Of a stretch of 64,000 bases of DNA, positions 1 to 5,481 are shown one piece after another. This DNA comes from Dictyostelium discoideum. Taxonomy: Eukaryota. Every line of letters starts with the position of its first letter. Positions within the stretch are counted from its first letter, which is position 1. The stretch is taken from assembly GCA_000004695.1 (NCBI GenBank), contig CM000151.3:4544001-4608000 (forward strand), read 5' to 3'. The notes beneath the pieces were generated by a model. The model was not told the DNA's origin. It was given only the letters and a program-made list of their open reading frames with translations, and made no database searches. A program made the translations under genes and the position numbers.

Positions 1-2869
1 AGGTTACACATATTCTTACAAATCAATTCAGATATTTTGTTCCCTCTATTGATCGTTATTATTCTTCAATTAATTTAAAACCTTTTAAAATACCTCCAAT
101 ATTAGATAGTAAGTTATTTTTTTTCAATTCCTTTTTTTTTTTTTTTTTTTTTATATATAGAATTTACTAATTTTAAATTATTAGATATAGATTTTTTTAA
201 TGAAATTAGAGATGTATCAATATTATATAAAACTATGAATGTTACAAATTCTAAAGCTGGAAATATATTATATTTTAATTATACAAATTTAGATATTGAA
301 ACACCAATTAATTTATTAGTAAATCTTCCAGAATATTTTGCAAACCAAATTCAATCCACTGTAATTTTACCAGAGGTATATTTAGATAATTCAGTACCAG
401 CAATTTGGAATAGTACAATAAATATGTTTCAAGTTGAATTTTTTTTACCAAAAAATTCTCTACCTGGTAAAATTCCATTTGCTTTATTCTTTAAAAATGA
501 TTTATTTATATTAGGTCAATCATTAGGTCCAAATGCTGAATTTAATGTAATTTCTGAAAGTAAGTTTTTACAATATTGTAAAAAAAAAAAAAAAAAAAAA
601 AAGAAATTCTAATAGTTTTTTTTTTGTTTTTTGTTTTATAGATTGTGATTTATATGGCCCAATTTTTGAAAATATTATAAAAATATCAAATACAATTAGT
701 GGTGATTTTCTTTTAGTTGGTTGGAATTTAACTATCAGTGATCCAATTAATGGATTTGCAGGTGGTTATATAGTTATAAAAGGTACAGATGGTTCAATAT
801 ATAATAAAACTATCATACCAACAGAAAACATTTATAGTGATACATATTTTGTTTCAGTAAATATAAGTTCACCATGTGCAAAACATAATTTAATAATTAC
901 TGATGTAGCACTATTTGATACTGAAAATAATAATTCAACATTTTCAATATTTAATGAATATGAAGGATTTTATAGGTCACTCTTTAATCCATTTATAAAT
1001 TTTATTGGTGATAATTCAATTAATAAGATTTCAGTTAACTGTATTACAGAAGCTATCGATGATACTCCACCTAAAATAATTAGTGTATATGTGGATCCAA
1101 AAGAAATTGATATTTCCAGTAATTTAAGAGATGTAGTAATAGGTTTTAATGCTGTTGATTCAGAAAGTGGTTTAAAGAAGGACGCATTACCAATGGTTTA
1201 TTTATCAAGTGTAGATCTCGATAAAATTGAATGTCCAATTATTAATGTTACTGTTATAGATAAATTCAATTCCCTATATCGATGCACAGTAAATGTACCA
1301 CTTGGTTTTGGTTACCCATATGGACTTTTAATATCAATATATGGATTGGTTAATAATGGTGGTACTTTTGGTGGTTACAGTACAGCTGATTTGAAAGAAA
1401 ATGGTTTTCCTCACTCCATCAATACCACATTTGCATTGGGTTATCCAATTATTGAGGGAGTTGGTAGAATTTCGACACTAGGTGGTGAAATTTGGATTAC
1501 AGGTAAAGGTTTATTGGGTGTAGATTATGCTATTTTAGAATCTAATAAACTTTTGGTCTCTAAAACTATTGGAAACTCAGCCATTTTATTAACAGGTATA
1601 CCATCATTGACTCCAAATACAAAATATTCTATTTTCGTTGTCAAAGGAGCATATATTTCGAATCGAATTGATTTCATACCATATGAAAAGGTTATTGGTT
1701 CTCCCTCTCCGACAGAAACTCCTTCAACAACTCCTTCAACAACTCCTTCAACAACTCCTTCAACAACACCAACTATTAAATGTTCTGGTACACCAGAATG
1801 TGGTGGTTCATTAAAAGGTTATTGTAATTCTGGAAATTGTGTTTGTTTTTCACCATGGATTGGTGTTGATTGTACATCAAAAATAATTTTAGTTGAACCA
1901 CCACGAGTTAATACAAGTGACCCATCAAGTGAAATTGAAACACCCATTTCAAATAGTTCGAATATTAAAGAAGCAGCAGTTTATAAATCATTTGTAGCAT
2001 TAATAGCACTAAGAGAACTTGATTTTAATGATGTAGTAATTAATCAATATTATTTTAGTAAATGGTTATTCAGTGAAATTAGTCCACTATCTTCAAAATA
2101 TATAACAAACATTACAAATAATGATGGTAAATCAATTTCACAAGTTACAGCTATAACTGAATGGTTCACTAAAGAAACAAACATATCATTTGGAGGTAGT
2201 GATTTAACAATGAATCCGTCATCATTAAAATATACTATTTCAATTGATTCTTATCCATTTAGAGATAAGCTTTGTAGATTAGAATTATTAATGTCTGCTT
2301 CTTTTACATCTTCAAAAACTGATGATATTTGTTCATCGCAAGAATTTACAACAACAGCAGCAGCAGCAAACTCAAAGGATGACAATGAAATTAGTGGTGG
2401 TAATAACTATTTAAAGATTCAAATTGGTGATCACTCAATGTTTGCAAGATTTTTAAAAAGAGGAATTATTGATGATAAAACTATCACTGTAGATAATAGA
2501 CAAATCATTAATGATGATAAAACTACTTCAACAATCGAAAACTCTGGATATCATTCAAGCGCATTAATTGGTATCCTTATACCATATTTTAGAAATTATT
2601 CTACAATAGATCCAGATTTCTCTGTAATAATAGATAATCAATCATCTTCACCCTCATCACCAAATTCAATTTGTTCACAAACTTCAAACTCTGGACTTAG
2701 TAAATCTTCTCTTGCTGGTATTATAATTGGTGGTGTTGCATTTTTCTTGGTAATTGTCATTTGTATTATATACTTCCTTTATAAGACTAACCCAGTTCCA
2801 TTTAAATTAATTAAACAAAGAATTTTCCTTGGTTGTTTTATTTCCAAAAATTTTAAATCGAAATATTAA
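1..2869 (+). CDS. EGF-like domain type I transmembrane glycoprotein, 5' partial (exons ~1-108, 161-559, 642-2869)
   Basis: Open frame enters from the window edge; GTAAGT donors at 109 and 560, AG acceptors at 160 and 641. Frames join cleanly into ORF 1091-2869. Cys-rich EGF-like block CSGTPECGGSLKGYCNSGNCVCFSPWIGVDC, (TPST)n mucin-like linker, single C-terminal TM helix IIIGGVAFFLVIVICIIYFLY followed by a short basic tail. Confidence 0.7.
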
Positions 2870-3443
2870 AAAAAAAAAATAATAAAATAAAAACTATTAA
2901 TTAAAATAGTTTAAATAAAATGTTGTAATTTGATAAATAAATATAACCTATTAAATTTATTTTTTACTTCATTTTTGTTTTTTCTATTATATAAGTCGAA
3001 CATTCTGAAAAGTCTGTTTGAGAGCAAATTGAGTAGTCTGAATTGTCAACATTTTTATTTTCATCTTTAATATCTATAAAATTTAAGAAATTAATATTTT
3101 TAAAAAAAAAATACAAAATGAATTACTTTTATTTTTTTCAATAAAATGTTCAAACGATTAAGGATAAAAAGAATTCTTTTATTTTTTTTTTTTCTTTTTT
3201 TTTTTTTAATTTTTTTTCTTTTACCGATAAAGAGAAACTTTTAATAAATTTTTTAATATTTTCTTAAAAATAAATTATATTTATTTGTTTTTTTTTCATT
3301 CTATGAGAATAATTAATTAATTAGGTTACCAGTAAAAATAATCAGTTTTAAGAGGAACTCCAAATTTATACTTTTTGTTAGAAGTTGATTTAATATTTTT
3401 TACACCATTTACTTTGGTAATTGATTTAGTGAATAGTTTTAAT

Positions 3444-4306
3444 TTATTGTGGAATAGTAGTTTTATTCAATGGGAGTTTAATATCGAAAACAAATAACTT
3501 TTTACAAGTAGATTGGAATGTTGGGAAAGGTTCGCTGTAACCATCTGGTAATAATATACCATCAACAAATGAAGGAATAGCTGCTGGTATACTATGTCCA
3601 AAAGCAATTGCAATATTTTCAATACCATTTGGAATAATATCACCATTTCCATAAATTAAAAATTCTTTATTTGCGAAATGACAAAGAGTTGATTGTCTAT
3701 CATCTTTTGGATAGATTTTCTCTGATACATTTTGTTGTTGTTTTTGAGATTGAACCTTTGCAGTGGTTGCCTCTTGTGATGATGATTTTGATGATGTATT
3801 TCCATAGGTACCAGAATTTCCAGTTCCTTTTGTAAATTCAGAAACAAAAATCATTTTTTGGAATGATTTTGGAATTTCTTCAATCAAATCCTCATTAATG
3901 GTTATTAAATCATCTTTATATTGAGGAGTTTCAATTCCTGAAGAAGATCCAGATTCCAATTTTGAAATATAAGATGAATGGATTTTCTTGGTGAATAACT
4001 TTGATTTTATTAATTTCATTCTCTTCACATTTTTTCAATTCTTTTTTTATTGAACTATAAATATCTTGAACTGTTTTCAATTCTTTTTCAAATTCTTTTT
4101 TCTTTTCATTAAACTTTTTATTTGATTCTTCAATTAAAGTTGAACTAGGTATATCATCTCCAATTTCAATGATTTGATGACCACTATGGAAATCTTTTGA
4201 AGTATCACATTTTGTACAGATTTGAACATTATTACATTGAGTACAAATAAAAAGTACATCATTATTTTGAAGTGATAAAATTTTTTACTATTATTAATAA
4301 TTGTCA
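3444..4306 (-). CDS. B-box-type zinc-finger / coiled-coil protein; reading frame interrupted twice (possible pseudogene or sequence error)
   Basis: Minus-strand ATG at ~4306. A middle frame encodes C-x2-C-x5-C-x2-C-x6-H-x2-H (ICTQCNNVQICTKCDTSKDFHSGH) plus a K/E-rich coiled coil. It shifts +1 into ORF 3444-4028 (MKRMKL...GSSSGIETPQYKDD...), which starts at GTG after an in-frame stop. Both breaks fall at A6 runs and there is no room for an intron. Confidence 0.4.
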
Positions 4307-4950
4307 TTTTATTTATTTTAGTTTAAAAAAAAAAAAAAAAATTTAATTTATAGTTTTTTGAATAATAGTAAATAATAGTAATGATAAATGATACTTGAAT
4401 ATTCAAAATTTTAAATATTTATAAAATATCTAGATTTTGATTTAAATTTAAAATATTATATAATTTTTATTTAAATTTAACTTTGTTCAATAGGATAATG
4501 ATGTCATTAAAATCTAGATTTTTTTTTTTTTTTTTTTTTTGTAAAAAGCTTGTGCTTTTTCATACACAAACCCAAAATAAGTTGAAAATGGTTGAATTTA
4601 ATTTTTCTGATAATCTACATGACGTGTTACATAAAAAAAATATCTTTTTTTTAAAAAAAAAAAATAAGAAATATCTAAAATTAAAAAAAAATTTGAAATT
4701 GGTTTGAGGGGAACTTATTTTGAGATTAAAAATAAACAAAATTAAAAAATAAAAAAGGATTGAAAAAATTGAAGGAAATTCTTGTATTATATAAAGAAAA
4801 AAAAAAATTAAAAAAAAATGAAATTAGGTTTGAGATTAAAAAAAGGTTTGAAAAAATAAAGGGGTAAAAAAAAAAAAATTTTTTTTTTTTTTTTAAAACA
4901 ATTTTAGTTTTCATTGTTGTAAAAAAAAAAAAAAAAAAAAAAAACCGATT

Positions 4951-5169
4951 ATGACAAAAAAGATAGATAAAAATTCATTCATCCAAAGATATTTAGAGAA
5001 AACAAATTGTTCGAATTGGAAATTGGATGAAAACAATGATGATAAAGACAACGTTATTGGATTACCTTCATTAGAATTCCTTAATGAAATTCAAAAATCA
5101 ATTTCTTTTAAACTTGCAAATAAATATAAATATGTTTCGATAAATAATTATGAAACGGAACACAACGAA

Positions 5170-5211
<42 letters not shown>

Positions 5212-5481
5212 AGTGAAAGTAATGCTGAAGAAGAGGATGATGAAGAAGTAAACCATGACGATACCACAGATGAAGAAACAGAAAAAAGAAAAAGAAAAAA
5301 AGTTTCAAAAAGTAAAACACACTCAAAACCAAATATAAGGTCAACTAACTCTGGTTTATTAAAAATGAATAGTAAAAACTCAATAAATAGGTTCCCATTA
5401 AGTCAACCATGTTTAAAACCTGAAATTTATAATGAAAGATGTGGTCCTGAAGTTTTAATGTCATTAGGTAAATATTTATAA
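4951..5481 (+). CDS. small acidic protein with poly-Asp/Glu tract and K/R-rich (NLS-like) segment
   Basis: Single ATG-initiated ORF of 176 aa with A-rich leader. (GAT)n encodes D14; KRKRKKVSKSK basic patch; stop TAA. Confidence 0.5.

Follow-up and report, generated by a model that had tools for sequence, protein, structure and literature searches.

A probable unitary pseudogene of a B-box and FNIP-repeat gene in Dictyostelium discoideum AX4

Background

On the minus strand of chromosome 2 of Dictyostelium discoideum AX4 there is a locus where consecutive pieces of coding-like sequence do not form one reading frame. Is this a gene whose sequence was misread, a gene decoded in an unusual way, a shortened gene that is still alive, or the remains of a dead one? 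The locus belongs to an AT-rich window (22% G+C), by which we mean the whole stretch of 64,000 nucleotides that was analysed. A preliminary description made from the window alone regarded the locus as a B-box zinc-finger gene broken by two 1-nt frame offsets at runs of six adenines (A6). It offered homopolymer-length error, a recent pseudogene or, less likely, programmed frameshifting as the cause.

The family concerned is a large one. FNIP repeats are among the commonest domains in Dictyostelium genomes, and in D. giganteum FNIP is the most abundant Pfam class, with 419 proteins (bioRxiv 10.64898/2026.03.01.708701).

In this work we compare the locus with its orthologues in related dictyostelids. 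The comparison indicates that positions 3326-4307 (minus strand) are very probably a unitary pseudogene of AX4, i.e., the relic of a gene that is intact elsewhere.

Methods

Orthologues were searched for with the conceptually repaired AX4 protein as the query; the search found four relatives, including the annotated AX4 protein DDB_G0274453. Synteny was tested with the two flanking genes, which are represented in the window by a 592-aa ORF (1091-2869) and a 176-aa ORF (4951-5481). Lesions were read from a DNA alignment (A1) of four species: AX4, D. cf. discoideum, D. citrinum and D. dimigraforme. The AX4 lesions rest on one reference assembly.

We estimated dN/dS by the method of Nei and Gojobori with the reading frame of D. 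citrinum as a guide. Changes on the AX4 lineage were polarised with two outgroups. For possible rescue by splicing, we generated, for a reading that begins at the ATG, all single introns with GT..AG ends and lengths of 30-400 nt.

Results

Reading frames at the AX4 locus

The minus-strand ATG at 4307-4305 opens the sequence MTIINNSKK, and this start is identical or nearly identical in D. cf. discoideum, D. citrinum and D. dimigraforme. The middle frame, which we call the B-box frame, contains a Cys/His-rich piece and then a Lys/Glu-rich helical stretch (KILSLQNNDVLFICTQCNNVQICTKCDTSKDFHSGHQ...); it reads KILSLQNNDVLFICTQCNNVQICTKCDTSKDFHSGHQIIEIGDD..., with the Lys/Glu-rich stretch next. The last piece is a 194-aa ORF (3444-4028, minus strand).

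Thus the three pieces seen in the preliminary description are real. They do not occupy three frames, since the ATG frame is also the frame of the 194-aa ORF and the middle piece alone is offset. The distances of 5-20 nt between a stop and the continuation of the coding sequence could not be reproduced either, because the frames overlap: the ATG frame is open as far as 4134 and stops there, while across 4034-3934 neither the B-box frame nor the C-terminal frame has a stop. The span of 3444-4306 given to the gene needs correction at both ends. It ends one base short of the ATG, and the stop at 3444 is a new nonsense codon, with relics of the gene extending to 3326.

The AX4 annotation includes only the last ORF of the locus, as the hypothetical protein DDB_G0274453. 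The translation of 3447-4019 is identical to it at 191 of 191 residues. The first 11 residues of this protein, MKLIKSKLFTK, come from the ancestral NEINKIKVIHQ region, read out of frame. The pieces of the locus are as follows.

4281..4307, minus strand: conserved start and first nine codons (MTIINNSKK) in the ancestral frame, ending in the A6 run 4286-4281
3987..4279, minus strand: B-box remnant and Lys/Glu-rich helical stretch, out of frame with the ATG, with His13-to-Leu and Pro14-to-Gln inside
3447..3986, minus strand: central part of the protein and its first FNIP-like segment, both read in the ancestral frame; most of the annotated DDB_G0274453 lies here
3444..4019, minus strand: annotated coding sequence of DDB_G0274453, 191 aa and a stop (identical to P0004)
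3326..3406, minus strand: what remains of the former C-terminus, GVKNIKSTSNKKYKFGVPLKTDYFYW, and its stop codon, now in a third frame and beyond the new stop

A tblastn search of the 64-kb window with both pieces found the locus itself and no paralogue. None of the 191-aa, 194-aa and 57-aa ORFs had an exact protein match in the assembly collection, and a scan of metagenome contigs for exact 24-mers of the locus found none either.

Intact orthologues at the same position

The comparison with dictyostelid orthologues, which the preliminary description had proposed as a check, places the lesions in AX4. In D. citrinum the orthologue ACTFIV_002979 (P0001; L001 3001-4152) is a single uninterrupted intronless ORF of 383 aa, and in D. 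dimigraforme the orthologue ACTA71_006376 (P0002; L002 3001-4140) is likewise a single uninterrupted intronless ORF, of 379 aa. After conceptual repair, the AX4 protein has 68-77% identity to the orthologues. The third related locus, that of D. cf. discoideum, is described below.

The order and orientation of both flanking genes are kept at all three related loci (E-values from 1e-55 to 0). Since the neighbours are conserved in position and orientation, we regard the AX4 locus and the three related loci as orthologous. Apart from the syntenic position, the AX4 relic and the dictyostelid B-box/FNIP orthologues have in common the N-terminus MTIINNSKK, the Cys/His spacing and the C-terminal tail KKYKFGVP.K.DY.YW. 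Unlike the orthologues, the AX4 copy is interrupted by a nonsense codon, has lost 152 nt, carries two further deletions that shift the frame, and lacks two zinc ligands.

Four lesions in AX4

The alignment reveals four lesions in the AX4 copy, all given here on the minus strand.

Between 4280 and 4279: lesion 1, 1-nt deletion of the G of the Cys10 codon TGT/TGC (alignment column 53)
Between 3987 and 3986: lesion 2, 8-nt deletion (alignment columns 396-403)
3446-3444: lesion 3, nonsense change of TCA (Ser294 in the orthologues) to TAA, which ends the C-terminal ORF
3411..3429: lesion 4, net loss of 152 nt from the FNIP-repeat coding sequence, which shifts the frame

At alignment column 53 the three orthologues have G where AX4 has a gap. 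Around this place the orthologues show AAAAAA TGT/TGC TTA TCA CAT, against AAAAAA T-T TTA TCA CTT in AX4. The adjacent A6 run (4286-4281) consists of six bases in all four species.

The site of lesion 2 reads AAAATCTT in D. cf. discoideum and AAAATATT in D. citrinum. A comparison of CAAG AAAATC TT AAAATC CATTCA (D. cf. discoideum) with CAAG AAAATC CATTCA (AX4) demonstrates the loss of one copy of the direct repeat AAAATC together with the spacer, which removes the codons Asn-Ile/Leu. The 8 nt may have been lost through replication slippage between the AAAATC repeats. The second A6 run (4035-4030) is about 45 nt away from lesion 2; it is gapless in the alignment and originated from a GAA-to-AAA (G-to-A) substitution.

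Thus the suggestion that both offsets sit on A6 runs and arose there as 1-nt changes does not survive the alignment. Neither run differs in length from its counterparts in the intact orthologues, the first break is the lost G of Cys10, and the second is the 8-nt deletion of lesion 2. With -1 and -8 adding up to -9, the reading is back in the ATG frame in the last ORF, so that just the middle piece appears displaced. This explains the coincidence of frames without any functional meaning, and the shifted stretch stops in the ATG frame at 4134.

Lesions 3 and 4 were absent from the preliminary description, as was the loss of two zinc ligands. Lesion 4 aligns as gaps of 17 nt and 135 nt flanking a 17-nt island, and its exact breakpoints are ambiguous. 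It removes the best-scoring FNIP repeat.

B-box, zinc ligands and FNIP repeats

The D. citrinum protein passes the Pfam zf-B_box model (27.4 bits, cut-off 24.1) and the FNIP model PF05725 (52.9 bits, cut-off 21), the best FNIP stretch being residues 285-322. The D. dimigraforme protein passes FNIP, and its zf-B_box score of 22.6 bits is just under the cut-off of 24.1. The AX4 copy alone, unlike these dictyostelid B-box (PF00643) and FNIP (PF05725) proteins, reaches neither model. Neither the piece in the B-box frame nor the repaired fusion matches PF00643, with just sub-threshold zf-UBR/ZZ hits, and the C-terminal ORF has no PF05725 match at E<=1. The ancestor would thus have been a member of PF00643, and the AX4 relic no longer qualifies; the B-box identity given in the preliminary description therefore holds for the gene and not for its AX4 remnant.

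The set of zinc ligands (C-x2-H ... C-x2-C ... C-x2-C ... H-x2-H) is incomplete in AX4: six ligands are kept and two of the eight are gone. Cys10 was destroyed by the 1-nt deletion, and His13 was replaced by Leu (CAT to CTT, 4272-4270). The neighbouring Pro14 has become Gln (4269-4267). At the other end of the protein, the best FNIP repeat of D. citrinum (285-322) corresponds to the stretch that in AX4 has the stop (codon 294) and then is mostly lost to the 152-nt deletion.

Substitutions on the AX4 lineage

Between the two intact genes, those of D. citrinum and D. dimigraforme, dN/dS is 0.215, and between AX4 and D. cf. discoideum it is 0.65. The split into synonymous and nonsynonymous changes differs between these two species pairs (Fisher p = 0.019). 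On the AX4 lineage we found 16 nonsynonymous changes and one nonsense change versus two synonymous codon changes, a small sample of 19 events. These counts deviate from an omega of 0.215 (binomial p = 1.1e-4) and do not deviate from neutrality (p = 0.40). R226G, Y242F and P271Q are among the AX4 changes at sites that are invariant in the other three species. The substitutions on the AX4 lineage fit neutral drift, and the pattern, with small counts, points the same way as the lesions.

No rescue by splicing

The enumeration of introns gave 34 ORF-producing candidates. The 20 of the 34 that were listed all excise the whole B-box and link the ATG frame with the C-terminal one, which is the same frame. 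Inspection of the sequence showed no AG acceptor in the part of the open B-box frame that precedes the B-box cysteines. The orthologues are intronless. Going by the listed candidates and this inspection, no single splice would restore the B-box in AX4.

A parallel case in D. cf. discoideum

The locus of D. cf. discoideum (L003:3001-4199, GCA_054859205.1) belongs to the closest relative of AX4. Its gene model, ACTFIY_003136, has 345 aa over 1199 nt and is not colinear in translation; therefore, the model contains introns. These introns appear to be invented ones that bridge real lesions. Namely, an in-frame loss of 6 nt has removed the Cys-Thr codons from the B-box, and there are also a 5-nt deletion, an AAA-to-TAA change at codon 296 and a 49-nt insertion. 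According to direct alignment, the insertion includes an exact 45-nt duplicated segment; this duplication was not reported by Tandem Repeats Finder.

None of these lesions is common to AX4. Judging by its sequence, the D. cf. discoideum orthologue looks like a probable pseudogene as well. The separate, non-overlapping sets of lesions point to a probable relaxation of constraint in the clade of AX4 and D. cf. discoideum.

Discussion

A unitary pseudogene is expected to have an intact orthologue at the conserved position in other species, disabling lesions, and signs of relaxed selection on its own lineage. All three were found. Intact orthologues are present at the syntenic position, the AX4 copy carries deletions of 1 nt, 8 nt and net 152 nt and the TCA-to-TAA change, and its lineage has the substitution pattern of relaxed selection, although with small counts. 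Like other unitary pseudogenes, the AX4 locus decays in place with its flanking genes kept, has several independent lesions and a neutral pattern, and is without a paralogue in the 64-kb window. The sole notable point in comparison with them is that its longest ORF is annotated as a protein-coding gene.

The ancestor would have been an intronless gene whose product of about 380 aa had a B-box zinc finger at the N-terminus, a helical linker, and FNIP repeats at the C-terminus. The AX4 locus would now yield no functional protein of this kind, and DDB_G0274453 would be the longest ORF remaining in the wreck. Thus, of the options considered in the preliminary description, a recent pseudogene is the one that the orthologue alignment and the four lesions support.

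The other two options concern the reading of the sequence and its decoding. If the reference miscounted both A6 runs, the gene would really be intact in AX4, and the first break is indeed one base from an A6 run. However, both runs have the orthologous length. The repair of the gene would need insertion of a G outside a homopolymer, of 8 nt and of 152 nt, together with a base substitution that removes the TAA, and homopolymer miscounts are unable to create such lesions. Even the repaired gene would keep His13-to-Leu and the excess of nonsynonymous changes, 17 versus 2. Programmed ribosomal frameshifting or transcriptional slippage, with a -1 shift at A6 and a later +1 shift, would yield the full B-box protein. 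The A6 run at the first frame junction and the mutual cancellation of the two offsets agree with this, and an A-rich run at a frame junction is what the locus shares with programmed -1 frameshift sites. Such sites consist of an X XXY YYZ heptamer and a downstream structure, whereas in AX4 the ATG frame reads AGT AAA AAA TTT, so that the A6 run is not phased as the heptamer. No stimulatory RNA structure was found after the run: the 111 nt that start at it (4290-4180) fold no better than shuffled sequences (z = 0.44). The shift is not conserved, since the orthologues have one frame despite the same A6 run, and the second junction is an 8-nt deletion without a slippery motif. The shifted product would be defective, as it lacks Cys10, His13 and most FNIP repeats and ends at the new stop. 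Because the nonsense codon, the net 152-nt deletion and the loss of two zinc ligands occur together, we regard both explanations as practically excluded; we leave very little chance to an error of the reference and next to none to frameshifting.

It is also conceivable that the gene is truncated and alive, with the 191-aa DDB_G0274453 (4019-3444) being expressed in a residual or new function. It is annotated as protein-coding in AX4, and about 180 of its codons are still in the ancestral frame. On the other hand, the start and the first 11 residues of this protein are accidental products of a shifted frame, and the protein has no match in Pfam. Of the AX4-lineage changes that fall inside its coding sequence, seven are nonsynonymous and one is synonymous; R226G, Y242F and P271Q, at sites invariant in the other three species, are among the seven. 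The literature searched does not mention the gene. We therefore consider a live truncated gene very unlikely. A particular form of this idea, which seems to us quite improbable, is a transition from a pseudogene to a new gene: DDB_G0274453 would be a very young truncated protein of a dying B-box/FNIP gene, still transcribed and translated, with a start codon made by the disruption of the frame.

If the locus is a unitary pseudogene, as we believe, DDB_G0274453 should carry a pseudogene label instead of being annotated as a hypothetical protein. The locus would be one small case of turnover in the large and fast-evolving FNIP-repeat family of social amoebae and, together with D. cf. discoideum, an example of probable independent decay of a B-box/FNIP gene in two close relatives. 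The mechanism of the gene loss in AX4 is nothing new, and the locus also adds nothing new on frameshifting.

Neighbouring genes and intergenic DNA

Several features of the surroundings are worth recording. In the 592-aa ORF (1091-2869, plus strand) there are a linker rich in Ser, Thr and Pro (TPSTTPSTTPSTTPSTTPT), an EGF-like stretch rich in Cys and, at the C-terminus, a hydrophobic segment. The gene of which this ORF forms the 3' part is much longer, with upstream exons that must precede 1091. The syntenic models have 1422 aa in D. citrinum and 1405 aa in D. dimigraforme, and the partial model of D. cf. discoideum has DUF7035/DUF7034/DUF7949/ComC_SSD Pfam matches. The 176-aa ORF (4951-5481, plus strand) contains 13 consecutive Asp residues and an acidic tract; as the other neighbour, it is kept in three of three related species with 67-84% identity.

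Long A/T runs are typical of Dictyostelium intergenic DNA. Two of them are seen here: a 23-base poly(A) run on the minus strand (4519-4541), intergenic and upstream of the pseudogene start, and a T16 run (4340-4325) directly ahead of the ATG.
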